A stretch of DNA of 63,239 nucleotides, counting the filler, from Stramenopiles sp. TOSAG23-3 (lineage: Eukaryota), in assembly GCA_900128585.1 (NCBI GenBank). It is 11 parts of 11 records of this genome, joined end to end, with 100 filler letters (N's around TTAATTAATTAA, not from the genome) between each part and the next. Parts side by side here need not be neighbours in the genome. Positions count along the whole stretch, not along the records: positions 24,991 to 33,213 come from LT643048.1; 10 more parts are not named here. The stretch is one strand, 5' to 3'. The stretch's first letter is position 1. Each line of letters begins with the position of its first letter. Under the pieces are notes generated by a model, which worked only from the letters and a program-made list of their open reading frames with translations, was not told the DNA's origin and ran no database searches. Shown here piece after piece: positions 8,239 through 46,936 of the stretch. The translations under genes and the position numbers were made by a program.

Positions 8239-8338
8239 NNNNNNNNNNNNNNNNNNNNNNNNNNNNNNNNNNNNNNNNNNNNTTAATTAATTAANNNNNN
8301 NNNNNNNNNNNNNNNNNNNNNNNNNNNNNNNNNNNNNN
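8239..8338. other. Artificial contig spacer (N44-TTAATTAATTAA-N44)
   Basis: Six-frame stop linker. Identical spacers start at 16567, 24891, 33214, 41509, 49802, 58094, 59381, 60668 and 61955. Contig sizes descend 8238, 8228, 8224, 8223, 8195, 8193, 8192, then 1187, 1187, 1187, 1185. Confidence 0.98.
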
Positions 8339-12720: not shown

Positions 12721-15700
12721 TCACCCACTTTTTATCACATTAGCAATCTGTTCTTTGATCAAGGATGCGCTTGGGAAATAGCTCGCGCAAACGGCCACCA
12801 AAATGCTGATGACAAAGAGAATTACAAAATTTACAACTGGAAACGAGAACTCAAATGGGGCCTCTAGAAAAAGGTTCATCTGCAACGTCAGCGAGGTTGC
12901 AATAGTTATCCCAATCAGACAACCCAACGTGAAACTTGACAAAACCAGAGACAAAGCTTCCAGGATATAGGCCTTTTGAACCTGTCGAGAACTGATGCCA
13001 ATGGCTCGTAGTACGGCAAATTCGCGCGCGTTTTCTGTGATGTTGGCTTCAAAAGACACGTATGAAACCAAAAAGCACAAGCTCATGCAAATAAAACCTA
13101 TCAAACCGAGCACTACGTCGAGCAGCGTAATCGCCACCTCGGTTGTTTCAATCAAATCCTTGGTGTCAATAATGACAAAATTAAACGATGAAGCAAGGCC
13201 GCCTGCAAACACCGTCAAGATTGCGTTGGTAACGGTCTCCCTGTCGATTAACGAGGATCCGTCCTTCATTTTTATGAGCATCCTAGCCTTCGCTATGGGC
13301 TCCGTCAGAGTATCGTTCAATAACGCAGAGTCGACAAGGGTTTGTCTCCCTTTTCGCGCTTGTTCGAGCAAATATTGGGCTTGGGGCATCGGTACGAACA
13401 GGGGGGCACGGTTTGCCAGCAACGAGTACGAAGAAAAAGCAGCAGTCGGCATTTTCGACATCAGAGCTCGCGGTCGGACTATATTGGAAATATCCAAATC
13501 TTTCTTTCCTTCGGACACTTTTACAATTAATTTTGCGCCAGTCGAAGTGGTAATGCTTGAGTATTCCGTCATCGCATAGCTCATTAACGTGTCTATGTAG
13601 GGAGGATCGTCCCCTTTCGCTGCCACTCCCTGATTCGAGTACTTTGTCGTCGCGATCAACGTATCGTTCGCTTCCATTTTCTTTCCACCCCCCAGTCCAA
13701 TTTGTCCTGCACCGTCATACAGAGCGTAAACTATGTTTGGCTCAACCTCCAACAAAGGGTTGTCGGGAGATTTCACTCTCTCCTTCTCGACCACGAACCC
13801 TTCGTAACATACATCTAAGAAATTTCTTTCCAACCCCATCACCATTGCCTCACGTCCTCCAGCAACAAATGGCAAGGAGCCCAGACGTGTACTCTTTATG
13901 AAATCGTAATCATATAGTGGAAATGACATGAACGTGTAATCGACAACAAGATCTTCCGACGACGCCCCTTTAAATTTATTGATCGCAGCGCTCAAACTGC
14001 TCGCGGGGAGAGGCGATTCGAAGTTGATCGATTGGACCACCAAGTCTGCGCCAAGCAGCCAGGCCGCGTTGTACCTTATTAGCTTTGCTTGCAAAGCAAA
14101 CATGACCCCCGCAAAAATAAGGAAGGCGGCGGTGATTGAGAGCATGTAAGACGTCTTTTTGTTTCGACGACGATGTGCGTCCAAGTTCTTGATGATGATT
14201 GGAAACAGGAACAGGTCTTCCTTCCTCCCGACAATTTTGTTGATATAAAAATAAAATTTCAAAAACAACCATTCAACCCAGCTGTTGAGTGCCTGGGTGA
14301 TCATGGATAACCCAACGAGCATAGCAACCAAAATTAAATTCATCAGCAACAAGAATAAATCTATCCGACCCATCGTGAAGGACAACGGCATCAGGTAAAA
14401 AGTCACGAATCCCATAGCAACAAGACTGATGGACAGACTGCTTGCTTCCGGGGACAGTCCCAATTCTACAAGACGGCGCATCGTCACAGTTATTTCGCCG
14501 CTCGATGTACGGTACAAATCAAGAGCATCCCGCAGCCGTGAAGACAAGGCTTTCCTGACGGGCAGCACGTTTGCGACGTAGGGCATGATCACTCCCAAGA
14601 TAAGGGCCAATCCCCAAGACCATCCTGGTAGCACGTAGGAAACCTCGAGGTTTACCTGCCCTCGAAATATGTTAACTATTGGAATGTTTATAATTGAGGC
14701 CAAAATCAGTCCTGCAATTACCGCCGGGAGTGCAAAAGCCAGAGCATTTAGCGACAGCATCTTTGACAGGACCCTATGCCACATCCCAAGTGCGCGCAAC
14801 ATTCCGTACTCGTAAGTTTTTGCTTCCACGTTTCCGAGGAGAAGCGCATAAATTACCATGCTGCCAAGGAAAACCAGCAGCATCATTACAACGAGAAATA
14901 TATTGTCCAAGAACAGCTGCAAGAAATAGAAGGCGTCCACTACTGCTAAGAGCGGGGTCGCTATGGAAACTCTATAATTCTTTCCAAGACTGCCGATAAA
15001 ATTGTCTGACAACCGTCTTAATGTGCCCTTCATTTCCTCGTTGGGTACAGTATAGACCCCTATTTTATCCTCCACCAAAACGTTCACCTGCAACATGTAG
15101 TGCTCCAAGTTTACTTGACGAATAGCTGTTACTTGGTCCCTCAGAGTTTGTTCGTTGCCCAACAGAGGCAATAGACCACTGGTCTCCAAATTCTGAAAAG
15201 CTTCGTCAATTTGCCTGAGTAACAACCGTTTTACTTCAGAAGTTTCTATCACAATGACGTTTCCGATCGCACGCGGCCATTTTCCATAGGGGTAGTCGAC
15301 CGTATCAAGAATTATAAACTCTTCTTGTATGACAAGACTTTGCCGTAAAATGGGGAAAAGAATGTCCTCAAACACAGGTCGCAAATTGACAGTAACCCCG
15401 TTTGGAAGCAAGGTGTCCAAATTTGTTGCCAGAGCATTTTCGATACCGGCCGCGCCACCAAGGCCTGCGGTAAATGGCGCCAGCTGCGGGTTCTGCGAAA
15501 TGATTGTATCGATCGCCGCGCTTGCCGCTTCTGATGTCTGGTTGCCGCTGGCTGTGACGTTGTCGTCCAGAGAAATTCCTAAGAGCTGCTCCGCCAATGC
15601 ACCAAGTGACTCCGATGTACTGAAGTCTGCTCCAAAATTTTGATTCCCAATGATTAAACCACCGGCTTGCGAGAAAATGCCTTGAGCCGCAGCAAAAGGA

Positions 15701-16308
15701 TCGATAGATAGCAACACGCGCTCCCCCGCCTTTCCTTTTACGCCAAGCGTTCGAGCCATGGATGCCGAAATGTAAGACTCCTGCTTGCCCATGGGTCTCC
15801 CCTTCCAAAATCGACCAAAATTAATCTCTTCCTCTTTCTTGCTGTCGATGGCAAGAACCGTTATTGTCGAGTTGAAGCTGGGGTTCAGCGCGTTTGACAC
15901 AAGGCCTAACATAGCCCACCTTCCCGACATCCCCGCTATTCCCTTCACGCCTTTGCTGCGCTCTTCCATTTCTGATACGTTAAGAAAGTAACCAGGATTC
16001 GGATCTCCCCGAACAATCTCTGGAAGAAGAAAAAAGTCAGCTTCCGAACCCTCGTTTTCGGCAGTTTTAAGAAATATAAATTTCACGTTAGAGATGGTGC
16101 TCTGAAAAAACGCGAGAAAAAATGTGACCAAAAACACCGCGAGGAAGCCTATGATATAACCCTTCCGGTCTTTTCGAATTCTAGACCTAACGTATGTAAT
16201 AAGGAATTCCATCGTCCCCTCAGCAACACGACTTGTTTCTACGTGAACTTGGGAAGGTTCCACCCCCCCCCCTCCGTTCCCGGACGGCCGCTGCTGTCGG
16301 GCTTGCAT
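12721..16308 (-). CDS. FtsX/MacB-like (type VII ABC) permease with two FtsX domains
   Basis: 1195 aa. Repeated architecture of a TM helix, a large soluble domain and 3 TM helices. Motifs EYGMLRALGM and EFAVLRAIG. Confidence 0.85.
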   Translation of the reverse strand: MQARQQRPSGNGGGGVEPSQVHVETSRVAEGTMEFLITYVRSRIRKDRKGYIIGFLAVFLVTFFLAFFQSTISNVKFIFLKTAENEGSEADFFLLPEIVRGDPNPGYFLNVSEMEERSKGVKGIAGMSGRWAMLGLVSNALNPSFNSTITVLAIDSKKEEEINFGRFWKGRPMGKQESYISASMARTLGVKGKAGERVLLSIDPFAAAQGIFSQAGGLIIGNQNFGADFSTSESLGALAEQLLGISLDDNVTASGNQTSEAASAAIDTIISQNPQLAPFTAGLGGAAGIENALATNLDTLLPNGVTVNLRPVFEDILFPILRQSLVIQEEFIILDTVDYPYGKWPRAIGNVIVIETSEVKRLLLRQIDEAFQNLETSGLLPLLGNEQTLRDQVTAIRQVNLEHYMLQVNVLVEDKIGVYTVPNEEMKGTLRRLSDNFIGSLGKNYRVSIATPLLAVVDAFYFLQLFLDNIFLVVMMLLVFLGSMVIYALLLGNVEAKTYEYGMLRALGMWHRVLSKMLSLNALAFALPAVIAGLILASIINIPIVNIFRGQVNLEVSYVLPGWSWGLALILGVIMPYVANVLPVRKALSSRLRDALDLYRTSSGEITVTMRRLVELGLSPEASSLSISLVAMGFVTFYLMPLSFTMGRIDLFLLLMNLILVAMLVGLSMITQALNSWVEWLFLKFYFYINKIVGRKEDLFLFPIIIKNLDAHRRRNKKTSYMLSITAAFLIFAGVMFALQAKLIRYNAAWLLGADLVVQSINFESPLPASSLSAAINKFKGASSEDLVVDYTFMSFPLYDYDFIKSTRLGSLPFVAGGREAMVMGLERNFLDVCYEGFVVEKERVKSPDNPLLEVEPNIVYALYDGAGQIGLGGGKKMEANDTLIATTKYSNQGVAAKGDDPPYIDTLMSYAMTEYSSITTSTGAKLIVKVSEGKKDLDISNIVRPRALMSKMPTAAFSSYSLLANRAPLFVPMPQAQYLLEQARKGRQTLVDSALLNDTLTEPIAKARMLIKMKDGSSLIDRETVTNAILTVFAGGLASSFNFVIIDTKDLIETTEVAITLLDVVLGLIGFICMSLCFLVSYVSFEANITENAREFAVLRAIGISSRQVQKAYILEALSLVLSSFTLGCLIGITIATSLTLQMNLFLEAPFEFSFPVVNFVILFVISILVAVCASYFPSASLIKEQIANVIKSG

Positions 16309-17039
16309 ACTTCCCTAACTATATTGTAAACGTTTGCGAAAGCAATAAATAACACTTCTTCGCTGTGAAATGTTCGAGATGTGTACAGGGAGCAAGTGAG
16401 ATAAAATGCCGTGATTGACATTAAGGATTGAAACATTCTGTTTTTACTTTCATCATAAGCAAATGAAAGAAGTAATAATACATTCTGAATAATAATTTTT
16501 TTATTATTCGGTTCCGTCGTATTATGTATTAAAATAATAATAATTCTTTAATACACTTTGTACTTANNNNNNNNNNNNNNNNNNNNNNNNNNNNNNNNNN
16601 NNNNNNNNNNTTAATTAATTAANNNNNNNNNNNNNNNNNNNNNNNNNNNNNNNNNNNNNNNNNNNNAGGCTCCTTTTTATTTTTTATTTTACGTTGGGAT
16701 AAAACATATGGACTGTATATGAATGACTGTACGTATTCCTTTTTCTTCTGCTATTTCATTATTACTAAATATTATATTTTGTTGGTGATTTTTAATTTTT
16801 TTTATGTCTTTTTTAAAATTATTCGTTGGCTGGCTGAATGCGCAACGGGCAAATACAAGCAATAACAGTTGTGATAAGCTCATTTTGATGATAAACCTAT
16901 GTATGCAGTCATAAAATTCCTATCCATATGATGACAAAAAAGAACCTTTATTTTAAGCCCCACATACGAGCAATATAAATACACCGGTACGGTACGAGCT
17001 AACCAACCAGAAAAAAAAAAACAAAAAAGAAATGAAGGC

Positions 17040-22538: not shown

Positions 22539-24629
22539 ATGGCAGAAACCAGTCCAGACAGTAGTCCAGCAGAAGGGCAGGACACTGAGAAGAACGTGAC
22601 GAATAAATTCGTTGTCGGGGCTTCAAAAACAGCAGACGCGTCAAAACCAAACCCCTTCGGCGGAACAGGTCTCTCGGCCAACAAATGGACCGCCGCAAGA
22701 GGTCGCCTGAAAACGAGTGTTGTTCTGAACATATCAGCGAGAAAAAACGTACTGGCAAAAGCTGATATGCTGGTTGACGACGGCCACGGTCATCATCACC
22801 ATCACTGGTGTGGGAAGTATATGATTCACCCAAACAACAAAATCAGAAAGTATTGGGATGTTGGCACTGTGCTTTTCGTGCTATATTTGTGTTTCAAGAT
22901 TCCATTTTCTATGGGATTTGAGCACTGGTATGGCAACAAATCGTTAAAACCGTTTGAAATATTCATGGACTGGTGGTTTGGAATTGATATTATTCTGAAC
23001 TTTTGCACCGGTTTCATCCACGACGGGCACTTGGTAATGAACCCTTGGGCAACGATGAACCATTATTTTGAATTTTGGTTTTGGATTGATATCCTCGCTA
23101 CCATCCCTTTCGAAATGTTCGTCGAAGGGATGTCGAAAAAGGACCGCAAGGCAATCAAAATGGTTAAATGGCTGAAAATAACTAGATTGTTGCGTATTGG
23201 TCGAATTCTGAAGCTGCTAAAAGGCTATGCAAGATTCTACAAGGTATTTTTGGCATTGATTGGGTTCATCTGGATGATGCACTTTATGGGTTGTATGTGG
23301 ATTTCGATCGTAGAACCGTGCATCATGATGGATGCCAATGGATACCCCTGGTATGCGCACGATCGTATCGACCCAGTCGAGGTAGCATATATACAATATA
23401 AAGGCTACACCATGTATGCGGAAGGCTCCGACTGTAACGACGTTTGGCGCATGTACGCCACTGCTTTGGATTACGGCGCGAAAGCTATGCTTGGCGCTTC
23501 GCCTTTGCTCATTAGTGGCGAAGATGATTGGATTCACCGGGTTACCTCAAACCAAGCAGGCTCAATGCATGCATTTGGGTTCTTTACTTCAGCGTTCGGA
23601 ATTATTTGCACAGCGTGGGTGTTCGGCGAGACTTTCGTTATTCTGTCTCATGTAGACCCCCAGGGTTGGGATTATTTTGGAAGATTGGACCGCATCAAGA
23701 AAGAGCTTGTACTTTACAATCTCCCGGAAGATATACAACATGACGTACTGCAATACTATGATTATTTGTACATGAACAGTAAACACGGGAAACAGGCTAT
23801 CCTTGGCGATGTTGATATGAGCGTATCGTTAAAAAAGCGCGTAGCAATCGCGTTACACCTCGATACCATTAGAAAAATTGATTTGTTTAAAAATGCATCA
23901 ACCCCCTGCATCCAAAAAGCATGCCAATTCCTGGTTATGGAAATTCACATGCCACATGAAATTATCGTTTCCGCTGGAGAACAAAGTTTGCATGTAGACG
24001 CAATAAAGATGTACGTCGTTGAGCGAGGCAAGCTGAGCGTCATCAAGGGTCTTCCCAGCAAACATGCTACTAAGGGGCACCATGGTCATGGGCACGGGCA
24101 CGGGCATGGGGATCACGAAGAAAAGTCAGGGGTGCACGGCTATATTGCGAAATTCAAAAAGTTTGGTAAGAGTTCATTGAAGAAAAAACAAAAAACAGCC
24201 GAGGAGATCGAAGAAGACAAGAAATTCAAGGAAGCCCAGTTGTCAGAGCAATTCGGTCACGATGAAGAAGTTATTGTGACTGAAATTGGACCCGGGTTGT
24301 CTTTCGGAGAAATAAACATTATAGACCCATTCCATGCTAGGAACAACTCTATCCGTACCAAGACCATCTGCGAGCTGTACACCCTGACACACCACGATTT
24401 CAGAATTCTTTTGGAAGCGTTTCCAACTTTCGGAAACGAAGTCAAGAAAGTAGCAGACCGAAAGCATCTGAGCTTCACTCTAGACCATTACCACGAGGCA
24501 AGAGAGATGGAATTGCACGAAGGAAATCACGTTGATGACGTTCCTGTCAACGAAAAATTGAAATACATCGACAGGCAATTGAAAACCGTTATGGAAGGCA
24601 TTCGCAGGCTTGAGAAAGCAACTTCGTAA
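22539..24629 (+). CDS. Cyclic-nucleotide-binding-domain ion channel (KCNH/HCN/CNG superfamily)
   Basis: MIHPNNKIRKYWD, DIILNFCTGF, FWIDILATIPFE, S4 KWLKITRLLRIGRILK, C-linker, CNBD with FGEI...RNNSIR...CELYTL. Confidence 0.88.
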   Translation: MAETSPDSSPAEGQDTEKNVTNKFVVGASKTADASKPNPFGGTGLSANKWTAARGRLKTSVVLNISARKNVLAKADMLVDDGHGHHHHHWCGKYMIHPNNKIRKYWDVGTVLFVLYLCFKIPFSMGFEHWYGNKSLKPFEIFMDWWFGIDIILNFCTGFIHDGHLVMNPWATMNHYFEFWFWIDILATIPFEMFVEGMSKKDRKAIKMVKWLKITRLLRIGRILKLLKGYARFYKVFLALIGFIWMMHFMGCMWISIVEPCIMMDANGYPWYAHDRIDPVEVAYIQYKGYTMYAEGSDCNDVWRMYATALDYGAKAMLGASPLLISGEDDWIHRVTSNQAGSMHAFGFFTSAFGIICTAWVFGETFVILSHVDPQGWDYFGRLDRIKKELVLYNLPEDIQHDVLQYYDYLYMNSKHGKQAILGDVDMSVSLKKRVAIALHLDTIRKIDLFKNASTPCIQKACQFLVMEIHMPHEIIVSAGEQSLHVDAIKMYVVERGKLSVIKGLPSKHATKGHHGHGHGHGHGDHEEKSGVHGYIAKFKKFGKSSLKKKQKTAEEIEEDKKFKEAQLSEQFGHDEEVIVTEIGPGLSFGEINIIDPFHARNNSIRTKTICELYTLTHHDFRILLEAFPTFGNEVKKVADRKHLSFTLDHYHEAREMELHEGNHVDDVPVNEKLKYIDRQLKTVMEGIRRLEKATS

Positions 24630-24890: not shown

Positions 24891-24992
24891 NNNNNNNNNN
24901 NNNNNNNNNNNNNNNNNNNNNNNNNNNNNNNNNNTTAATTAATTAANNNNNNNNNNNNNNNNNNNNNNNNNNNNNNNNNNNNNNNNNNNNGC

Positions 24993-26561
24993 GACGACCA
25001 CGGTCGTATTGAAGTCTGGGATGTTAAGACCGGCTGTCACCTTTATCGCTTTGAAAACGTTCACAGCACTGGCACTGGCGCCATGGTAACACAGTACGCG
25101 CTGAATGGCGAGGGAACTGCTCTGTTTATTTGTGGAACAGACGGAGCTGTTTCTGTGCGCCACCCATTTAACGGGGAATTGCTTGCAATTTTAGACGGAC
25201 GTTCGGACGAAAAAATTGGCACAAAAAGTAGTTTTGGGGAGCCCAGCACATGCATGCCTTTGATGCTAAACGGAAAATCATTCTTGCTGGTTGGCAGTAC
25301 TTTGGGAAAATTAGCGTTTTGGGAGCTGCCTAAATCGTTTAGCTCAAAAAATACCCCCATAATTTCAAGATCGTTTACGACGAGGGCGCACTCTTCAATG
25401 ATAACGGGTATGGTGCAGCGTTTAAAGAAAAGGCTCAATTCAAAATCGTACCATCTGGCGGTCATTGACTTGAGCGGTCAGTATATATTGTGGAACGCCA
25501 TAGACATGGTCAAACTAAATGTAATCGAAAAAGATGACGTTGCACAGAGCATCTCGTACATACCTCATTCCGATCTAGTGATTCTAGGTTATTCGAGTGG
25601 AGTCATGAGTTTGGTAAACTGTGAAAAAAATGGTTTTGTACTGATGTCTATATACGCGGGGGTAAACGACGACGACCAAAAGAAGTCTCAAAGCCCAGTT
25701 AAAGCCAAACAGAATAGCAATGGCGGTACCATGGGCATTGGTGTCGCTAGCCTCCACAGCACCCCGACATCTCTTTTTGCAGGAATAGACCAAGGATACG
25801 TAAGGTATTGGGACATTTCACAACTACCAAAAAATGCGAAGGACGGGGGAGACTGGGACACATCGTTTCAAAGCAGGAGCGTGTGGCGAGCACATCAAAA
25901 TCCTGTCGAAAACATCGTTTATATCGCAAAAAAGAATGTTCTTTTGCTGGGGTGCACACTAGAGAAGGCTGCGTCGTTATGGACCACGAATGGAATTTGC
26001 ATCGGTAAGTTTGGTTCGGACTACGTTTGGAAAGTCAGCGATGCATCAACGTATTTGGACGGAAACATTTTGGACGATAAATCTTTGATCCCTAAATGTG
26101 GCGAGAAAGCACGGGAGGAGAGGCGCTTAGCCAAGTCAAAACAAAGAAAGAAGCGAATCCGCTTGGACCGTGCCGAGAGAAAAAAGAAGTATTTAGACAT
26201 ATCTATGGATCTTGATGAAGATGCTGCAAGGGAAAATTATGATGAAGAAAGCGAGGACGACAATGCGGACGATGCGGTAGTGGAAAAAGCGAGGAATGGC
26301 TCGGAATCATATATAATTGAAAATGGACGGAAACAATACCTGGAGAAGAAGGAAATGAATATGTACCAAATGAACCAGATTAGGAAAAAGTTCAAAGATA
26401 AGTCCCTGGATTGGTGCATGTCACTTTACAATAACCATAGAAAGATACCTTCTATAGGCACTGTTCCAGGAAGGGAACTGATCAAAAATTTAAAAGGCCG
26501 AAAGGCAAAGCGATCAAAAGAGGCGCGTGAGTATGAGAGGAAAAGGTTTTTAACCGAATGA
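24993..26561 (+). CDS. WD40-repeat protein, WDR49/WDR64/EFCAB8-like; 5'-partial
   Basis: Frame is open from the contig edge (DDHGRIEVWDVKTG). WD repeats and WRAH...SLWTTNGICIGKFG..W tail. Confidence 0.75.
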   Translation, partial: DDHGRIEVWDVKTGCHLYRFENVHSTGTGAMVTQYALNGEGTALFICGTDGAVSVRHPFNGELLAILDGRSDEKIGTKSSFGEPSTCMPLMLNGKSFLLVGSTLGKLAFWELPKSFSSKNTPIISRSFTTRAHSSMITGMVQRLKKRLNSKSYHLAVIDLSGQYILWNAIDMVKLNVIEKDDVAQSISYIPHSDLVILGYSSGVMSLVNCEKNGFVLMSIYAGVNDDDQKKSQSPVKAKQNSNGGTMGIGVASLHSTPTSLFAGIDQGYVRYWDISQLPKNAKDGGDWDTSFQSRSVWRAHQNPVENIVYIAKKNVLLLGCTLEKAASLWTTNGICIGKFGSDYVWKVSDASTYLDGNILDDKSLIPKCGEKAREERRLAKSKQRKKRIRLDRAERKKKYLDISMDLDEDAARENYDEESEDDNADDAVVEKARNGSESYIIENGRKQYLEKKEMNMYQMNQIRKKFKDKSLDWCMSLYNNHRKIPSIGTVPGRELIKNLKGRKAKRSKEAREYERKRFLTE

Positions 26562-27344
26562 AAAAATATGAGAATAAAGAAGTTGGCGATGGGTGATGGC
26601 ATCGTTGAAAATCCAAATGTCGTACACAAGAGCATAAATACGAGGAGTCCTCGTAGTATAGATTTAAACGATAAGAGAAGTAAATCGGCACGAGGAGTCA
26701 AAACACTTCAGATAAATTACTAAGACTAAAAAGGATTATATCTATCATCCCCTCTATCACCCATTATTTTATAACCCTAACAATAACCCTAATACTTCTT
26801 ATTACATTTCCATTTCATTCAAATTGATTGTGTGTTCCTGTCAGGTGCTGTTCTTCACATTCAAAATAAATTGGCCAATAACGTCACACTATTGCCAACT
26901 ATCAATAGTGCAATAAAGAAGACTAGTCCTAGTTAGTATCTTACGAGGACTATCTCAACCCCTCCCGCCTCACGCACGAGTGAACTTAGTCCTCAGGATT
27001 TATTACCTACTAAATTATACTAAATATTTTCCGTACTGTATTTAATTACTAAATATATATAGTCTATTTAAGACAATCATTATATTTAAATAAAAAAAAA
27101 ATAAAAAAAAAAAACAACAACAACAACCACCACCAAACAAATTGTTTTATCTCAAAGTTGGTAAAGAATTTTATTAAATAATAATATACATAACATTAGA
27201 ATTTTCGAAGAAAAATTGTGAAAAGAAATATTACCCAATGATATTTTTCAATTGTAGTCGCGCAAGGTTGTTGATTAGCACGTGAAAGCACAAACACAAG
27301 ACGGTTTAATTCCGCAGTTCGTCTGGAAGACAGAGTCGGTGAGG

Positions 27345-30300
27345 ATGAGCACGGCAGTGTCGTTGAAAGCTCTGGAAATCCCTGGGAAGGTAACACAGGT
27401 TAAAATGGAAATTCCTGAAAGGGGCCATTACTACGAAGGGGACTGGCTTGATCCTCCAGGGGTTGCACATGGAAAGGGAAAGTACATATGGGAAGACGGT
27501 GCCCGCTACGAGGGTGATTGGAAAATGGGTTTAGCGGACGGCTTCGGTGTGAAAGCACACCCGAACGGTCAGCTTTTTGAGGGTATGTGGAAGAAGGACT
27601 TGCAGCACGGGGAAGGTAAATGCATGTACCCAGATGGAACCACATTTCAAGGCAATTTCAACAAAGGAATGAAAGATGGAAAGGGAACCTTGACGTTTCC
27701 AGACGGGTCCACATATGTAGGCAGTTTTTACAAGGATCTAATGCACGGTAAATCGGTTTTCAAGAGACTTGGGATAGGAATTTTTGAAGGAGAGTTTGAG
27801 AACAACAACATGAAGCTCGGAAAGTTTACGGCTGAAGATGGGGTCGTATATGATGGGCAATGGAGTCGTAACAAGCAACACGGCTGGGGCATTGCGTATA
27901 AGGAAGAAGAGGAGGGGAAGCGGTTGGGGTATTGGATAAGCGGGAGGCCAGCGACCGATAAAGAATTTTTAAATGACTTGATGAAGGATTTTCCACAGGC
28001 GAAAAAAGAAAGGCCGCTGCATTATGCATTATCAACCTTTGCTTCGAAGGAGAACATATTTCATTTCCTTAAGCTTTGCCCTGATGACGTGAAAAAGAAA
28101 GACAGAGCAGGCCTTTTACCGATACACACGGCTTCGTATAAAGGCGCCTCTGTGGAGGTCATCGAAAAGCTAGTCAAACTGTACCCCGAAGGCATTTCTG
28201 TGAGGACAATGGGCGGTGGCGTTCCGTTGCACAGTGCGATATTTGGACGAGCTTCATTTGAAACTACAATAAAGTTACTGGAGCACTTTCCTGAAGCAAC
28301 AAAAATTATCACTAAGAATGGAAACACATGCTTGGCACTCGCTTCATACAAGGGTCTCACGAGATTGGTACCGTTGTTCCTTGCGTTAGACCCGACCGCT
28401 ATTGACCGCAAGAATACTAAAAAGGAAACTCCGCGATCACTTGCCAAAGATTTCGGGCATCGTGATGTGTCCAAACTATTACGAGATGAAAGAAAAACAA
28501 TAAATGAATTTAAATACCATTTGAAGAAAGGAGGCATAGAAGGATTAACGTGGGATAAATTCATGGTATGGGCTAAGAAAGTTATGCCCCCAGATACGTA
28601 TAAGACATGGGCAGAAAAAAAGGAGAGCGCTGGGGCCGGGGTTTCAGAAAGCAAAAATTCTGTCGACAGAATTGTCCAGTCAGTTGTTCAAACAGATTGG
28701 ATGAACTTCAAATCGAACGGCAACTGGGCTTTAGAGAAGGTAAAGGAACTTCTTCGAAGCAATCCATCGGCGGCAAGGGAAGAAGATGAATATGGTTCAA
28801 TGCTTTTACACTGGGCAGTGTACATGGACGCACCACTTGAGACCGTTCAGTTCATATACAATGAAAATAAGTCAGCTGTTCGAGTACCTGGGAATAGCGG
28901 GCACTTGCCGTTACATTTTACCATATTTGGTTTCGAGACGGATCGGGAGATAAATTTTGATGTAGTTCAATATCTTTTCGATGCTTTCGAAGAAGGAGCA
29001 ATCGCCAAAACGTCAAAGGGAAATACTTTCATGCACATCATGTGCCAGACCGACAGAGCAGTACCAACAGAATGGTTGGAAATGCTGATGTTGAAGTATC
29101 CCCATTCTGCGTCGGTGAAGAACGACAACGGGTTACTGCCGATTCATCTACTGGCAGAGCACTGTCGGAGCAAAGAACAGCTTGATTTGCTGGTCAACAC
29201 CTATCCAAAAGGGGTCCAAGAAGCCGACCAAACAAATAAGTGGATCCCGCTGCACTACGCTGCCTCCGTTGGGAATCTTGTGGCCGTTCAGCTTCTGTTA
29301 AAGGCTTTTGCTCCAGGCGTGCATGAACTAGACTCGGAAGGAAATACACCGCTAAAGTTAGCGATGAATTACAAATCATTAAGCGTGTCCAGGGACAGAG
29401 AGGAAGTTATTGCATTGTTGGAAACGCAAAAATCAGCTGCCATGGACCATGCGAGGATGATTCTTCGTCAAGTTTTACTTTCAGGCGACAGTCAACCATG
29501 GATGCGTTCGAAGCTAATGCTAGTGGGTGAGGGTCGTGCCGGTAAAACGAGCACCTTGCGTTCTCTTATGGGAGAGGCATTTAGAGAGAACGAAATGAGC
29601 ACCATTGGGGCCACCACAAAGACATGCACCGTAAACAAATTCAACGTGAAGATTAATCGTGACAATACTGTTCAGCCATGGAAAGAGAAAGTTGACCAGC
29701 AGTCCGAGTTTGACACGGCAGTAGCAAAGCTTGTAAAAAAAGGCTTGCAGAAGAAGAAAGCAGAGATGCTTGTGAGCCAGAACCAGTTAAGAAAAAAACA
29801 AGTCGGAACGACCCCAACCGCTGCTTCTGTGGAACTTCATGATTCCGCTTCCCTTCGATCAAATGAAACGAAGAGCGAAGGGTCACAGCAGACTTTAATA
29901 AACGACTCTCTCTCAATAGATCAGGATCTCGACCGCGTAGACAAGGGATCGATTTTAGTTTCTTCTCTACCGAGTGGTTCTAAAGGTTCCGAAAGCATGC
30001 AAACCCCCTTTAGTGATCACATGGAGCAAACGCCTGTTCGAAGAATTCATACGGCGAGAAGCCCCGAGCAGCGAGCGGAAGAAATTATCAATAACTATGG
30101 CGATGTAGACATTCAGAACTTATTACAAGGGGCAGAGAACACTTTAAAGCTTGGTATTTGGGATTATGGTGGGCAGGAAATATTTTATGCTGTTCATCAC
30201 TTGTTTTTAACACGCTTTGGGGTATACCTTGTGCTATTTGACATGAGAAAGATCCTAAAACCCGAGACAAGGAGTGACTCAATTAATTTTATCAGGTTTT

Positions 30301-33213
30301 GGTTGAATTCTATTGCTCTATATGCAAGGTCTAGCACAGACAACGGCAAGGAAGAAAGCGGGAAAGGCAGCCCAATTTTTTTAATCGGTTCTCATAAGGA
30401 CGTGGTTCCTGAAGTGGAAGAACACAAGAACATATCGGACATTTTGACCAGAACGTTTGGCGCAAACATTGAACGACAAAACATTCAACGGAATGAAAAA
30501 GAAGGTATCTGTTTCTTTCCCATGGACAACACTGCCGAAAACGATTGTAATGTGATTGTGGTTCGACAGTGTGTAGAGAAAGTCATAGCAAAGGAGGAAT
30601 ATATAATGGAAGAGTACCCTATCGCTTGGATGACAGTATGTGACGAGTTAAAGAATAAGAGCCAGGAAGACGCGTACCTTACGCTGGAAGAAGTGTATGA
30701 GCTTGCCCTTGAATGCGGAATTAAAGATACTGGTGGCGATCCGGACGCATCCAAAAAATCATGGGTAGAAGTGAACGCTATGTTGGCACACTTTCATCAG
30801 CTTGGCGTCATCGTCTACTATGGCCATAGGCAAGGCTTAGATCAGCTAATTATTCTAAATCCCCAGTGGATTGTCGACAGAATATCTGATGTAATAAGGG
30901 AGTTTTCTTCTCAATCGTTTACCCATTCAAGGGGGAGGGACAAATTTGCGAAAGAAATGAATGAAGAGTGGTCTGACTTGACTAAAAAAGGGGTGTTAAG
31001 CAAGCGGCTACTCCGCCATTTGTGGCGTGGCGATCACCGTCATGTCGATTTTTTATTGACTTTGATGCAAACGTTTGCGTTGATATGCCCTCTTAAGATT
31101 CCTACCGCAGGAGCGTTGCTCTTGCAGTATATGGTGCCGAGTTTATTGCCTTCCAAAATGTTTCCTTTAAAAGAGAACCGAAGGCACGACATTGAGATCG
31201 CTTTTGGTGTCTTTCTTCCCACTGGTATATTTGGCAGGTTGGTTGTCGTTATGCTAGAGTACTATTTCTCGGAAACAATCGAGAGATACGGTAGCTATGA
31301 GAATAGAATGGAAAACGTTGCAGAGAAGGCGAGCGCCGATGGCGCCCAAACCGACCCGCTGATTCGGTCTTTGAAAGAAAATGGCCCATCTATTTACAAA
31401 ACATGGTGCGCATTCAACTTTCACTCAAAAGGCTCTCTGATAATATCAATGCGCCAATCGAATAAAGATATAGTTGTTTATTTTCTTGACGACGAAGCGA
31501 GGATGAACTGCGACGAAATCTTTTCCGTGCTGGGAAAATTAATTAACACTTTGAACATTGAATTTTACAACTCACAGTTGAACATTTTACTGACTAAGCC
31601 AAACGAACAAAAAGCATCATTGGCTTTAGATTTGTCAAAATCTTGGCACCGTCCCAGATTGGACATCTTGACAGCTCGTCGAAGTACCGCCTCGGCGTAT
31701 CTGACGGGCGAGGCGAAGGCCAAAGGGTATTATACAGTGCCGAACCTAGAGGATTTGTCAAGCGATGGCGACGTCGCTCACATAGAAAATTTTGTAGTGG
31801 GACGTAAAGGTTACGGGAAAATAAAATGGTTGTGCCCCGTTAATTTGTCAGAAGCTGGTGCAATTGACGACATTGTCTTCATTGAAAGAGGCGACGTGTC
31901 AGTGTATGAATTTCATAAACGGGAGCCAAAGCAGGGGTACGAGCTGAATTGCTCCGCTCAAATCGAATTCGAAAATTTCTTTCCGCCGGATAAGGACGAC
32001 GATACAAGAACGGCACGTTTTTTGCGTCGCATGAAAAAAATTGAGAGAAATGGTGGTTATGACAATTGTGAGTACAACGCAGAGACAGGAACATGGAGGT
32101 TTGAAGTCCAGCACTTTACAATTCAGGGCTGGAACGCCGAAGATAATGAACTGATTGAATGGATACTGAACCTACTTTGGTTGCCTCGAAGACATGATCG
32201 AAATCGCGATCAAGCGAAAGACTATGCAGAAGGCCTTCTTAAACAAGACTATTATTTGGAAGAGATCATTGGCGACCCGCCCCCTCCCCACGATGACTGG
32301 TCTCCTGCAAGCGATCCTCCTTCGATTCCCATACTCGAGGCCGCCGGGTTTCGACCATTGCATATTAGGAAAGTTGTCCGCGTGCTGGCTGCTTTGTACC
32401 CAACCAAGAGAGAATACCAAGGTGTTCCAGCACCAAAATCTGTAGCAGTTGCTACTAAGCCTGCAGTAACGGTCGCCCCAGCAGTGAAAGCGGCTGAGAA
32501 AAGTCCGACTACTAGTGTCTCAGGGTATGATGTGTTTTTATCTCACGATTGGGGAAAATTTACTATCAAAGGAAAAGATGGTAAAGCAGGGGTAGAGATT
32601 CAAAATCACGACCGGGTGAAAAGAATAAACGAAGGCCTGAAAGCAGTTGGCCTGGAGACATGGTTTGACGAAGATAGAATGTCTGGTAACATAAATGATC
32701 AAATGGTTTCTGGAATTGACAATTCGTCTTGCTTCTTGGCGTTTATCACGAACAACTATATTTTAAAAGTTTCAGGGGAAGGACCAAATGGAAAAGCGGA
32801 CAACTGCAAGAAAGAGTTTGAATACGGAGAACGAAGGAAAACGGCAAAACGCATGATTCCAATCCTAATCGAGCCAAGTGCTTGGAATACAAAAATGTGG
32901 AAAGGGAGTGTAGGCATGTGTCTTGGAGGCGAGCTGTACTTTAAGATGGACGAGGCAGACGTATGGGAAGACAATGTGAAATTTAATGAGGCAATCAGTA
33001 AATTGGCAGACAAGGTTAAAACCACTATCCTGTCGTGCGGCAATGCATTGGTAAACCAGAAGAAGAAGGCGAAAAGCACTCTTCAACCTGCTTCAACGGT
33101 TTCAGCAGGGGGGGGTAGTGGACCGGCAACCTCAAAAAATATTGTCGCCGCAAAATTGAAGACAGCAGGAAATCAAGCCTTGGCGAGACCGGTTAGCGAA
33201 TGCAGTGCCGTGC
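27345..33213 (+). CDS. Roco-family protein: MORN - ankyrin - ROC GTPase - COR - Nup98-like autopeptidase - SAM-like - TIR; 3'-partial
   Basis: MORN repeats YEGDW..G..HG.G (about 27425-27940); ankyrin PLH/PIH repeats (about 28010-29420); GEGRAGKTS (29526), WDYGGQE (30159), GSHKD; COR ILNPQW; GYYTVP...GRKGYG...TGTWRFEVQHFT (31725-32120); YDVFLSHDWG...WFDE...NCKKE (32526-33020). Confidence 0.92.
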
Positions 33214-33313
33214 NNNNNNNNNNNNNNNNNNNNNNNNNNNNNNNNNNNNNNNNNNNNTTAATTAATTAANNNNNNNNNNNNNNNNNNNNNNNNNNNNNNN
33301 NNNNNNNNNNNNN

Positions 33314-42755: not shown

Positions 42756-43549
42756 ATTTTTTAAATCTATCTACTGCAGGCCCCGTCTGCTCCAGTGGCC
42801 AACCCGGTCGGTCAACAACGCGACACAAACCCTCACTCCCTCCTCCGTCCGTCCGTCCTACCCCGTTACAATAATAACAATCCAATATTCTTGATCCCAA
42901 CGCTTACGCAGTCCTCTCCATCGTATATTTATTCTCTTCGACGTCAATACAGAGGGAAAGGGATTTCTAAAAAAGGAAAGAAAGTGAGTTACATCCATCC
43001 CCCCCCCCCCTAATAAAAAAAAGAAGAAGAAACAACACATCATTTTTTATAATATAATAAAGCTCTAATAATTTTAATATTTTATATTATTATTCTACCT
43101 TGGTACTATTAATACTAACTACCACCGACCAATAGATTATTATTTCATTTTCTATAATAAATAATCATTATTATTAAATGTTTTATATAGGAGGTATTCT
43201 TCTATTCTTTTATTATTATATATACACAAAAAAACAAATAAATAATAATATAATTAATAAAATAAAATAAGTGAACATATCTCATATTATTATTATTATT
43301 CTCTATAAAAAAATATTATAGGAATAATATATATAATAATATGTATTATCTTGATTGAATGAAATTCAAATTGTTTTTGTTTATGTGTCTGTCCACTCCA
43401 TGTTTTGAATATTTAATTTTTAGTACGTGCAGGTAGTAAATGGACGAGCAGAAAGATAAGAATTGCAGAGATATAGACAAAAAATCGATTGGATCGGATG
43501 TTTATTTGACGTCGTCCCACGGACAAGCTCTTTCGATTTAATTATCCCC

Positions 43550-46500
43550 ATGTCGGAGGCAAATCAAAGAAAGGATGAATCGGTTGACGACCAGATCGAT
43601 GCGGAGTTTCAAGCGCTAAAGCAGAGGTCCAAAGAACGGTGCGAACAAATGGATGCAAGGATATCCACCCTGGAGGCCCATATTTTGGCGGGTTTATCTG
43701 GCGGGGCAAACCGGCTAGAGGAGCAATATAAAGCTATTTTAGAAGTTGCTGGCGGGGGGGATGGAGACACCGCCGGCTTGCCACACGTGGACGCACTGAA
43801 ACATGAAATACAGAGGATCAGGAACAGGAAGACAAAGTTCGAGCTTGACATGAAAGTTCAACGGAATACCAAACACTATCAAATGAACGACAGCAAATCC
43901 CTCATGAATCAGTTGAAAGACGTGCGGACGCAAAGGATATCGGCGCAGTTTAAAGTAGAAAAACAAGAAACGGAAATCCGTACGTTGAAAGAAGCACTTC
44001 GCGGCGCGAACGAAAAGGCCGAGACCATTGCATCGAGGGCAGCGGAGAAAGAAGAAAAGCGAGTGTTCCGCCTTCGAAAACAGTTGAAAGAGGCCCTTGA
44101 CAGGATATCCAGCCTGGAGACGAGCCTGGGCGAGCTGAGCGACGTGACAGATGAAAACATGCTGTTGAAGGCGCAGGTTCAGGAGCTGCAGGGCGTCGCG
44201 TTGTCATCGGCTCAAAATGCGATGGGACCAGAGCGAAGCCTGGCACAGTCGGGGGCCACGCTTGACGCAACCATGCACTTGCGGTCAAAATCAAACCTCT
44301 TAGAGCTCGAAAGGAACAAGGCCCGGTCCGAATCCCAGCGCACGAATGCTTTGCTGATCGAAAAGATGTCCCAAATCACTACTTTAGAAACGTCCAGGCA
44401 AATGTTAAAAGAAGACCTAAAGTCCACAAAGTCGAGCTTGTTCGGTGCAGAAGAAAAGTACAAAGATTATACGAGCCACTTGCGGGAAAAGATACTGAAC
44501 TTGGAGGGGGAGGCCAAGGGTTTGAGAAGCGCCCACCGAGAGAAAGACGAGCTCATTGCAACGTTCGAACTGAAGGAAATGACGTTTGAGACAGAGCTTA
44601 CGATTGCAAAAAATGCCGTTGCAAGCGCCACCGAAGGGTTAGAACGATCCCAAGCGGACGCCGCGAAGAAGAACAAAACGTTTGCGACAAAGTGCCAAAC
44701 GCTGAAGGAAGCGCTTGACGAGAAAGGCGCCGCCTTGAAGCAATCGCACGCGCTCATTGCAAGCATGCAGGAACAGATGGAGATCATCTCTGAAAGTTTG
44801 GAGGAAGCCCAAACGAAGACCAAAGCGACAAACAAAGCGTTCCTGTCCCTCCAGGATGATGCCAGAACGAAGCTGAAAGACAGCGAAATTCGAATAAAGA
44901 CTCTGCAATTAGACTTAGAGGATCTGCGGTCAAAACTAAAGAGCGCCCACGAAAATGTAGCCAAGCGTGACGAGACCGTGAATGCTTTGGAGTGGAAGCT
45001 GGACATGTCGCGATCGGAATACGACGAACTGAAAGAAAAATCGTCCCTTGCGCAAACCCAGTGGGACATGACGGAACGCAGTGCGAACAAGGAAACGCGG
45101 GTCCTAAAAGAGCAGCTCGACGCGACGATGAAAAAAGAGTCCTTTTTGACGAAGCAATTGGCCACAAGCGAGAACACCGTCGGCATGCTTAATGAAATCT
45201 CCGAGAAGGCGCGGGTAGAGAAGGAGAAGATGGAATCGTTCATTGCGGAGTTGCAGAAAAACCGAGAAGAAACCGTTGGAAACCTTATGGCGGAGAATGG
45301 GAAGCTCGAATGGAGCCTGTCCTTGCAGAAGGAGGCCTTTCAAAAGTCCGAGAAGGCAAACGAGGGGCAGCAGGCCGAAATCGAAGCCCTCAAGAAGAAC
45401 GTTGAAAAGTGGGAGGCGTCCTGCACACAAATTCTGGACGAGAAGGACGTTTTGCTTCGACAGGGGCTTCAGAAAGAGAGCGAGCTGAACGGGAGGCTGG
45501 TGCAACTGCGCGATGCACTGAGGGAGAAGAAAAGCGCAGAAGAAACCCTGACCAAGACTCTCGTTGCAAAGGAGGTCAAGATCACGACGTTGGAAACGGA
45601 CCTGGGCTCGCTTCGAAAGTCGATCACAGAAGCAAACAAGCGCAACCAGCAAAAGGAGCAGGCCCAGGACGAGCTAAAGGTGACACTCCAACAAAAAATA
45701 GTTGATTTGAACATGAAGCTAGAGAAAACGAATGGGGAACTGTCCGAATCCACGTTTGCGAGAGAGGTGCTGACCGAGAAAAACGGTGCGCTGGAAACGA
45801 AATTGACGCTTGCGCGAGCGGAACTGGAAACCTTGAAGCGAAAAAACATGGTGCAATCCAATGCCTCGGCAGAATCGATGGAAATGATGCGGGAGAGCAA
45901 TCGCAAGATGGAGCGCAACCTTGAGCATGAACGGGAGCGGACGTTGGAAACGTCAATGGAGGCTTCAAAGTACAAGGGCGAGCTGAACAAATACGTGGAA
46001 GAGCTGCAAGCCGCGAAGGAGGACCGTAAGTCTGCAAAGCAGTCCTATGCCAACAAGCACAACGTGGACGCTCGAACGATATCGGAACTGAAGCTGAAAA
46101 TAGAAGAGACCACGTCGATCGTCAAGATGAAAGAGACGATCATAGAGAAAATGCGGGCCGAGTTTTCGTCCCAAGAGCAAAAGGTATTTGAACTGGGAAA
46201 GAAGGAGAGCGAGCTGTACAAGCAAAAAGAAGAAGAAATACAAGAGGCGGTGCACGAAGAGAAAAAACGATATTTCAAACTTTTGGACCGGCTCAAAACT
46301 GTGCAACGCGAATTGTCCACGGCGGTCATGAAACGCGACGAGCTGCAAGAAGCGTTGAGCCGAGGAAACAACCACCCCGCCCATTTGGCGACAGAAATTA
46401 GCAGGGAGGCCGACCGAAAGATGCAAGACGCCAGCGCGATGAAGTCAAACACAACCAAACGCGACGCGGCGTTTTCAGATTTGATGGAATTGTACCAGCA

Positions 46501-46936
46501 AGTCATCCGGTACACAAAAGACGGCAAGCATGACCTAGGGGTTCTGAGCGGGGAGGCGTACAGCGGAATAGCAAGAATTGGGGGGTACAAAGGGTCGTGG
46601 TTGATGGGAATACGGAATATGGAACGAACCCTGCAAATCTGGCGAGAGGTGGAGGAGAAGGCACGGGAGTACGAAAGTCTCCTGCTGGCTGCTGGTTTCT
46701 ATTGCCACGCCTACGTTCAGAACAGAAACCCTAACCTTTTGGACAGGGCCATCGACAAATGCCGAGCGCTGGTCGTTGCGGCTAACTTTTCTGGTAACCC
46801 GGTGTGGAAGGAGGAATTGGGAACGTATAACAAATTTATTGATGACGTGGAGCAGGTGAAAGCTGGAAACAAGAAGGTCAGCTACGGGGAAGAAACGACA
46901 GGGCACATGCAGTACTTGACCTTTTCGTTGCTGTAG
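43550..46936 (+). CDS. Long coiled-coil protein with a small globular C-terminal domain
   Basis: About 1130 aa, E/K/L-rich heptads. The last 150 aa or so are aromatic-rich and non-coiled. Confidence 0.85.
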   Translation: MSEANQRKDESVDDQIDAEFQALKQRSKERCEQMDARISTLEAHILAGLSGGANRLEEQYKAILEVAGGGDGDTAGLPHVDALKHEIQRIRNRKTKFELDMKVQRNTKHYQMNDSKSLMNQLKDVRTQRISAQFKVEKQETEIRTLKEALRGANEKAETIASRAAEKEEKRVFRLRKQLKEALDRISSLETSLGELSDVTDENMLLKAQVQELQGVALSSAQNAMGPERSLAQSGATLDATMHLRSKSNLLELERNKARSESQRTNALLIEKMSQITTLETSRQMLKEDLKSTKSSLFGAEEKYKDYTSHLREKILNLEGEAKGLRSAHREKDELIATFELKEMTFETELTIAKNAVASATEGLERSQADAAKKNKTFATKCQTLKEALDEKGAALKQSHALIASMQEQMEIISESLEEAQTKTKATNKAFLSLQDDARTKLKDSEIRIKTLQLDLEDLRSKLKSAHENVAKRDETVNALEWKLDMSRSEYDELKEKSSLAQTQWDMTERSANKETRVLKEQLDATMKKESFLTKQLATSENTVGMLNEISEKARVEKEKMESFIAELQKNREETVGNLMAENGKLEWSLSLQKEAFQKSEKANEGQQAEIEALKKNVEKWEASCTQILDEKDVLLRQGLQKESELNGRLVQLRDALREKKSAEETLTKTLVAKEVKITTLETDLGSLRKSITEANKRNQQKEQAQDELKVTLQQKIVDLNMKLEKTNGELSESTFAREVLTEKNGALETKLTLARAELETLKRKNMVQSNASAESMEMMRESNRKMERNLEHERERTLETSMEASKYKGELNKYVEELQAAKEDRKSAKQSYANKHNVDARTISELKLKIEETTSIVKMKETIIEKMRAEFSSQEQKVFELGKKESELYKQKEEEIQEAVHEEKKRYFKLLDRLKTVQRELSTAVMKRDELQEALSRGNNHPAHLATEISREADRKMQDASAMKSNTTKRDAAFSDLMELYQQVIRYTKDGKHDLGVLSGEAYSGIARIGGYKGSWLMGIRNMERTLQIWREVEEKAREYESLLLAAGFYCHAYVQNRNPNLLDRAIDKCRALVVAANFSGNPVWKEELGTYNKFIDDVEQVKAGNKKVSYGEETTGHMQYLTFSLL

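Follow-up and report, generated by a model that had tools for sequence, protein, structure and literature searches.

A stramenopile Roco-TIR gene with a Nup98-type autoproteolytic domain between GTPase and TIR: a candidate self-cleaving receptor

What is the self-cleaving domain of a nucleoporin doing between a GTPase switch and a TIR effector? The question is raised by a gene of Stramenopiles sp. TOSAG23-3 (assembly GCA_900128585.1), located at 27345-33213 of a 63,239-base stretch of DNA, referred to here as the window. An initial annotation, made from the sequence alone, had described its product as a candidate immune receptor, in which repeats and a Roco GTPase are joined to a Nup98-like autopeptidase that would release a SAM-TIR effector. 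As shown below, the architecture is real, expressed and unusual, and the reading of the protein as a self-cleaving receptor is plausible by analogy with known systems.

A Pfam scan of the window protein showed the order MORN repeats, ankyrin repeats, Roc with a large insert, COR, S59, a helical stretch of about 95 amino acids (aa), linker, TIR and a low-complexity tail (Table 1; aa are numbered from an upstream GTG, and all domain matches named here lie above the curated cutoffs). The protein belongs to the Roco family, as its Roc domain carries the G1, G3 and G4 motifs and COR follows directly after it. The motifs are GEGRAGKTS (G1, aa 749-757, 29526-29552), WDYGGQE (G3, aa 960-966, 30159-30179) and the G4-like SHKD (aa 1037-1040, 30390-30401). 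All three had been read in the initial annotation, and together with its MORN, ankyrin and COR assignments they were confirmed by the Pfam matches and the motif positions. Between switch I and G3 the Roc domain holds a low-complexity insert of about 172 aa (29634-30146). An insert of similar length occupies the same place in the Roc domain of P0008, a related Roco protein, and to judge from the two sequences it may be a subfamily feature. COR-A covers aa 1113-1289 (Pfam E 1e-17; E 1.8e-19 on the fragment), and the stretch that follows is presumed from its position to be COR-B.

The S59 domain sets this protein apart. The PF04096 profile matched over positions 2-145 of 148 (E 7.8e-30, 104.4 bits vs. 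a cutoff of 28.4), in the place where the domain had been proposed (31725-32120). This is a full-length match with the H-F-T tripeptide at its C-terminal edge, after which the polypeptide continues. A phmmer search of PDB with the C-terminal 538 aa gave 23 distinct sequences, all of them autoproteolytic domains (APDs) of Nup98, Nup145 or Nup116. The best match was the human Nup98 APD (2q5x, E 2.6e-18). The alignment begins at the first strand, extends through to the cleavage site and places QHF|TIQGW on human SHF|(S/A)KYG (H862-F863-S864; HF-A in the S864A entry). The claims of a complete Nup98/Nup145-like APD and of F|T codons at 32115-32120 were both borne out by these alignments. Identity to human Nup98 is about 35% in the printed alignment, which also pairs the GRKGYG and DK motifs, with the Lys of DK retained, and in which the H-F-[S/T] sites coincide. 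In contrast to Nup98, the domain is not part of a nucleoporin but is embedded between COR and the TIR module, no Nup96 domain was detected by Pfam, Thr takes the place of Ser (as in Entamoeba), and an 8-residue loop is absent. An ESM Atlas search with S59 returned only Nup98 S59 clusters (0.79-0.80). Foldseek placed the APD 2q5y_C at rank 44 (E 1.3e-3) with an AlphaFold2 (AF2) model whose S59 part has a predicted local confidence (pLDDT) of 35-70. Nup98-like proteins of Entamoeba carry a natural HFT and, in the available part of the preprint, give an immunoblot pattern consistent with processing, with K240 and N248 named as the auxiliary catalytic Lys and Asn (bioRxiv 10.64898/2026.09.13.750810). 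Autoproteolysis of this kind is described as starting generally from Ser, Thr or Cys, with a buried Phe as the key structural element (PMC3210808).

The TIR domain of the initial annotation was equally well recovered, by the TIR_2 match, by a confident AF2 model (pLDDT 89-98) and by Foldseek, where the top TIR matches were RPS4, AbTir, SARM1 and RPP1 with probability 1.00, together with RUN1. The Foldseek list also includes scaffold-type TIRs, so the fold alone leaves enzyme vs. adaptor undecided. A glutamate in the motif DNCKxEFxY (E1845 counted from the GTG, E1824 from the ATG; 32814-32816) is invariant in 28/28 aligned TIRs. Of the TIR matches used in the alignment, 27 are of standalone size (151-238 aa). 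The best PDB match of the profile is the NAD-degrading Cat1 TIR (1.6e-6). Searching a protein library with the C-terminal 538 aa gave 3741 matches at E<=1e-3 and 1515 at E<=1e-10, and in all 150 matches listed the best-matching stretch fell in the linker/TIR part of the query. PADLOC gave only a sub-threshold match to the TIR (E 0.0035). The TIR belongs to a very large family and its fold is confidently modelled; by analogy, its output may be that of an NAD-degrading enzyme (NADase). One relative of this TIR, P0133 (887 aa), combines Ion_trans and cNMP_binding with TIR. On another contig the window encodes, at 22539-24629, a channel with Ion_trans and cNMP_binding and no TIR.

The SAM part of the proposed SAM-TIR effector did not hold. 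Between the predicted scissile bond and the linker, AF2 models gave 4-5 helices with pLDDT of 45-66 in context and a mean of 49.9 for the region alone. Pfam found no family at E<=10 on 32121-32441 and no SAM family in the whole protein at E<=1. No SAM chain occurs among the 50 matches listed of a VIA wide search, which, run with this low-confidence model, returned generic helical bundles with a best Z of 4.0. The clusters that ESM Atlas returned for the helical part were all unnamed and for the most part viral, and with 0.86-0.88 they fall short of the 0.9 that counts as a lead. Against 159 fetched proteins, none besides the close relative P0155 matched the helical part below E 0.003 (blastp) or 0.06 (phmmer), and the blastp match of P0133 to the helical-region query, 34 residues long, falls in the linker and not in the helices. 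We have dropped the SAM label on account of the missing Pfam family, the low-confidence models and the lack of a SAM chain among the VIA matches listed, and refer to the stretch as a helical region.

Several lines of evidence bear on whether this order belongs to a genuine gene. The gene stretch was present in 20 of the 24 public runs listed (16 studies; six RNA runs). Three rows of that list may be the source itself, and four source-independent runs were compared contig by contig: two marine metagenomes (X4 and X5), a metatranscriptome (X16) and a polyA library (X15). A single DNA contig of X4 (4067 nucleotides, nt) spans 28302-32368, running from the ankyrin repeats through Roc, COR, S59 and the cleavage codons into the helical part; one of X5 spans 31232-32534. 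A metatranscriptome contig of X16 (2278 nt) covers 31255-33213 including the TIR and extends past the end of the window contig. No joints, gaps or introns were found in the contigs of the four independent runs that matched the gene. The check for a chimeric join at 31600-32600, which the initial annotation had called for, was therefore answered by colinear, independent DNA and RNA contigs without a joint. The GC content at third codon positions (GC3) is even over the domains (0.44-0.52). A further assembly, L001, is identical through COR-S59-TIR, and the same domain order is seen in L001 and in P0003, a protein from a third assembly. The homopolymer at 33108-33115 reads G8 in the window and G9 in L001 (about 4990-4998); the extra G breaks the frame only in the Ser/Ala-rich tail past the TIR, and we read it as a homopolymer error or a real length variant. 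We conclude that this is a real, transcribed, intronless marine protist gene.

The plus-strand frame is open from 27282 (GTG) or 27345 (the first in-frame ATG) to the contig end at 33213 and meets an N44-TTAATTAATTAA-N44 linker at 33214; the gene is 3′-truncated. The single uninterrupted open reading frame (ORF) of the initial annotation stands, but it is cut by the contig end and does not end at 33213. P0003, from an independent assembly (22-kb contig), is the same protein with its start at the same ATG, and differs in 3 aa of the 1956 shared residues. As P0003 has 2063 aa, 107 codons are missing from the window; the full protein has about 231 kDa. On the 5′ side, X15 shows an RNA depth of 0 between 26600 and 27041; in the 27042-27262 bin, of which the RNA contig touches the last two bases only, the depth is 0.05. 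Upstream of 27261 the RNA depth of X16 is 0 as well, yet this region is covered throughout by DNA of X4 and X5, which argues for true transcription and a 5′ untranslated region of about 84 nt.

Table 1. Features of the Roco-S59-TIR gene, in positions of the whole window.
Feature	Positions	Strand	Basis and remarks
Probable 5′ untranslated region	27261..27344	+	polyA-RNA contig of run X15 begins at 27261
Coding sequence, first 1956 of 2063 codons	27345..33213	+	open frame and P0003; contig end cuts the 3′ side
MORN repeats	27405..27971	+	PF02493, E 6e-22, 4 stretches; four MORN-like units by regular expression
Ankyrin repeat region	27972..29441	+	Ank_2 E 1.5e-22, Ank_5 E 3.7e-19; borders approximate
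Roc GTPase	29511..30461	+	Pfam Roc E 8.2e-17, two stretches
COR	30618..31631	+	COR-A 30618-31148, then presumed COR-B
Nup98-type S59 autoproteolytic domain	31722..32123	+	PF04096 (Nucleoporin2), aa 1481-1614
H-F-T tripeptide, predicted scissile bond F|T	32112..32120	+	F 32115-32117, T 32118-32120; Nup98 alignment
Helical region of about 95 aa with Pro-rich loop (initially "SAM-like")	32118..32402	+	AF2 helices; no Pfam match
Pro/Ala/Val-rich linker	32403..32522	+	not alignable to P0155 or P0005; pLDDT below 50
TIR domain	32523..33056	+	TIR_2 E 4.7e-11, 43.7 bits vs. cutoff 28
Ser/Ala/Thr-rich tail, start	33057..33213	+	tail 164 aa in P0003; G8 run 33108-33115

Relatives were found for each half of the protein. 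For the C-terminal half, P0155 (299 aa, on a 38-kb contig) carries an S59 domain 78.6% identical (PF04096 E 3.5e-29) and a helical part 82% identical, with HFTIQGW unchanged. The tail of P0155 has diverged and overlaps with the beginning of P0005 (134 aa), which continues into a TIR 76.6% identical; at least one further gene thus shares the order S59-helical-linker-TIR. In this comparison conservation extends to the domains but not to the linker, which cannot be aligned. The gene call of P0155 ends ...MPLKKK just before the TIR, while the overlapping P0005 reads ...MPQKKVTK... into it; this end may reflect a frameshift in a run of A's, or an artefact of the joint that precedes the TIR. A Pfam scan detected S59 in 0/9 multidomain TIR library matches, P0104 and P0141 being outside the scan. 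The library search returned no other S59-TIR fusions, which is a weak negative, as the gene's own full-length protein was also not returned; word-index protein searches of this kind reach close relatives only. A metagenome scan found only the same gene (L001), and a scan of viral contigs gave no match. Homologues of the same order, which the initial annotation had made a test of its proposal, were in this way found for S59-helical-linker-TIR in one relative, and nothing further was found.

For the other half, a Roc-COR search gave 9 proteins, 7 of them not this gene, and PF04096 occurred only in two forms of this gene. The Roc-COR relatives, at 26-34% identity, carry as outputs SH2+TIR, TIR, kinase, caspase, NACHT/CHAT, or none listed. 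P0156 reads Roc-COR-SH2-TIR and P0157 Roc-COR-TIR; P0159 has EF-hand, caspase, thioredoxin-like and Roc-COR domains, in P0162 Roc is combined with NACHT and CHAT, and the order in P0008 is TIR-Ank-Roc-COR-TIR, its Roc-COR matching that of this gene at 28% identity over 619 aa. Judged by their domains, these outputs look typical of death or immune signalling. The simplest history that would fit the sequences starts from a Roco-TIR protein that gained S59 and the helical part by insertion between its COR and TIR domains. A further library match, P0007 from related marine eukaryote data, is a double TIR with WD40.

Self-cleaving FIIND hinges are central to the arming of some animal immune receptors. 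To our knowledge, self-cleaving immune-receptor hinges are known only with the ZU5-UPA fold (FIIND in NLRP1, CARD8 and PIDD1). These proteins resemble the one described here in having sensor repeats, an NTPase switch, a self-cutting domain with an xF|S/T site and an effector; they differ in the fold of the cutter, in their STAND ATPase in place of a Roco GTPase, and in the effector, which here is a TIR. None of ZU5, UPA, FIIND, NACHT, CARD or Death is among the 14 Pfam matches at E<=1, and the likeness would be one of function, by analogy, not of family membership. The FIIND-like logic of the initial annotation is reasonable as an analogy, and the available text of PMC3210808 draws a comparison between Nup98 HFS and the cleavage sites of FIIND (SF|S) and PIDD (HFS); a family membership it is not. 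SARM1 (ARM-SAM-SAM-TIR) offers a second parallel. The TIR model superposes on its TIR (9ugj_F; template modelling score 0.77 on the target, root-mean-square deviation 3.3), and restraint of the TIR by N-terminal parts is the logic that, by analogy, is proposed here. In contrast to SARM1, the protein has no SAM or ARM match, and the TIRs are 12-15% identical. A further comparison is with the Roco-TIR proteins P0008, P0156 and P0157, and those of Aplysia, which share the Roc-COR switch, repeat sensors and TIR output; S59 is absent from P0008, P0156 and P0157. ROCO-containing TIR proteins are reported from Aplysia in the part available of PMC9334734, and Roc-COR from bacterial conflict systems in that of PMC7159879, the accessible text of which does not describe a TIR output there.

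We give a probability of roughly 0.5 to the reading that the gene encodes a Roco-switched TIR effector protein that cleaves itself at HF|T, and whose fragments are held together and then released in a death or immune response. The H-F-T is intact and lies exactly where Nup98 is cut. As the protein folds, or shortly afterwards, the hydroxyl of Thr would attack the F-T bond (an N-O acyl shift, as in Nup98). This would yield two fragments, one of about 180 kDa with the sensor and switch (MORN-Ank-Roc-COR-S59, ending ...EVQHF), the other of about 51 kDa with the helical region and the TIR (beginning TIQGW). The two would stay paired through the new N-terminal strand, which would keep its place on the S59 sheet in the way that the N-terminus of Nup96 does on Nup98. 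The TIR fragment would come free when Roc-COR changes its nucleotide or dimer state, or when the N-terminal fragment is lost. Once free, it would self-associate and consume NAD+ or make a nucleotide signal in stress, infection or a death response. Retention, triggered release and NADase output are suggested by analogy with Nup98-Nup96, NLRP1/CARD8 and SARM1, and an immune role would follow from the same kind of comparison.

A number of observations weigh against this reading. The invariant Glu is equated with the catalytic Glu of SARM1 and plant NADase TIRs by its C-x-x-E-[F/L] context, and in the HMMER alignment to Cat1 the Glu region is offset by two residues. The Nup96 residues Y866, G867 and L868, which hold the tail, are only partly kept here (Q, G, W). 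The S59 part of the AF2 model reaches a pLDDT of only 35-70. P0155 and P0005 are known from gene-call fragments only, and S59-TIR was seen only in this gene and one close relative. Evidence for HFT itself is soft, as in Entamoeba the T296A change lowered processing and did not abolish it, according to the available part of the preprint (bioRxiv 10.64898/2026.09.13.750810). By spacing and the HMMER alignment, the position of that preprint's catalytic Asn appears to be Arg here and in P0155. Apart from these, a complex prediction of S59 with the C-terminal fragment scored 0.31 vs. a mark of 0.34, and counts neither for the reading nor against it.

Four other explanations were weighed. S59 could be an uncut docking module, as are the APDs of yeast Nup116 and Nup100, through which the protein is tethered to some partner; at the nuclear pore this might be the Nup82/Nup88 propeller or the Nup96 N-terminus. 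We consider this unlikely, because the H-F-T is intact, identical in the relative and followed by further polypeptide, whereas the non-cleaving yeast APDs end at the domain boundary. It is nevertheless in line with the Nup116 APDs among the PDB matches, with the seeming Arg (by our own mapping) at the preprint's catalytic Asn, and with the fact that APDs bind as well as cut, the Nup145N APD binding the Nup82 propeller in the part available of a preprint (bioRxiv 10.1101/2021.10.26.465790). The gene could also encode a polyprotein, cut constitutively into a Roco GTPase and a helical-TIR protein in equal amounts, with no hold and release. This would agree with the many standalone TIR proteins in this family (27 aligned at 151-238 aa) and with the ancestral role of S59 in Nup98-Nup96, as given in the accessible portion of bioRxiv 10.64898/2026.09.13.750810. 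We hold it to be distinctly unlikely, since P0008, P0156 and P0157 carry a TIR covalently and without a cutter; a covalent TIR in related Roco proteins suggests that the GTPase switch acts through the TIR, which would then not be a protein in its own right. That S59 is an integrated decoy, a copy mimicking the cell's own Nup98 APD so that the strike of an invader triggers the Roco-TIR output, seems highly improbable: viruses do target Nup98, but the one point in favour of a decoy is that a nucleoporin domain sits within an architecture of immune type, and there is no evidence for any invader or interaction. An assembly chimera or decaying pseudogene has next to no probability, as the fragmentation of the assembly into short contigs and the homopolymer frameshift in the L001 tail are outweighed by an open frame of 1956 codons, colinear joint-free contigs from two metagenomes and one metatranscriptome, the full 2063 aa in a third assembly (P0003), even GC3, and domains kept in a relative while the linker diverges, so that this explanation is already largely refuted.

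The window is made of 11 contigs in size order (8238, 8228, 8224, 8223, ... 1185 nt), joined by 10 linkers that hold stop codons in all six frames (8239-8338, 16567-16666, 24891-24990, 33214-33313 and six more). Only 24991-33213 is for this reason true genomic context for the gene, and neighbours across a linker are not syntenic. By tblastn the gene has no paralogues elsewhere in the window (self match only). Other window contigs carry long uninterrupted frames for ARMC9, a CFAP65-like protein, a SHIPPO repeat protein and UPF1; these are ciliary and general eukaryotic genes, and their uninterrupted frames point to an intron-poor flagellated eukaryote as the source. The minus strand of a separate contig holds an ORF of 1195 aa (12721-16308) that matched an FtsX-like permease C-terminal domain in two stretches (E 2e-26). 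This is unusual for a eukaryotic bin; the ORF may be a true MacB-like gene of a protist, or the contig may be a contaminant. On another contig lies a 1157-aa ORF (43463-46936, plus strand) with no Pfam family at E<=0.001.

The initial annotation knew of no earlier description of the architecture. S59 between Roc-COR and TIR was not found in the searched literature; Roco-TIR fusions, by contrast, are already known. Nor did that literature, which did not extend to the supplementary tables of PMC7159879 and PMC8195603, yield a description of S59 outside nucleoporins, or a paper treating Nup98, an autoproteolytic domain and a TIR domain together. The text of PMC8195603 treats autopeptidase, ZU5 and TIR domains, and Nup98 is absent from it. 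On the sequences compared, the new element appears to be an S59 domain outside a nucleoporin, in the position of a hinge. We put forward as tentative, and rather doubtful in its full form, the proposal that this is the first use of S59 beyond the nuclear pore, as the pre-cut hinge of a GTPase-switched TIR receptor that would have arrived independently at the "cut first, release on trigger" logic of NLRP1/CARD8, with S59 possibly serving also as bait for attackers of Nup98.

If the S59 hinge works, the design of a pre-cut receptor has evolved more than once. The Nup98 protease would then be a portable module, and not the nucleoporin-only domain as which it is treated in the literature found. 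In either case, the gene is a eukaryotic addition to a class that is growing, the Roco-switched TIR proteins, for which predictions have until now come mainly from prokaryotes.

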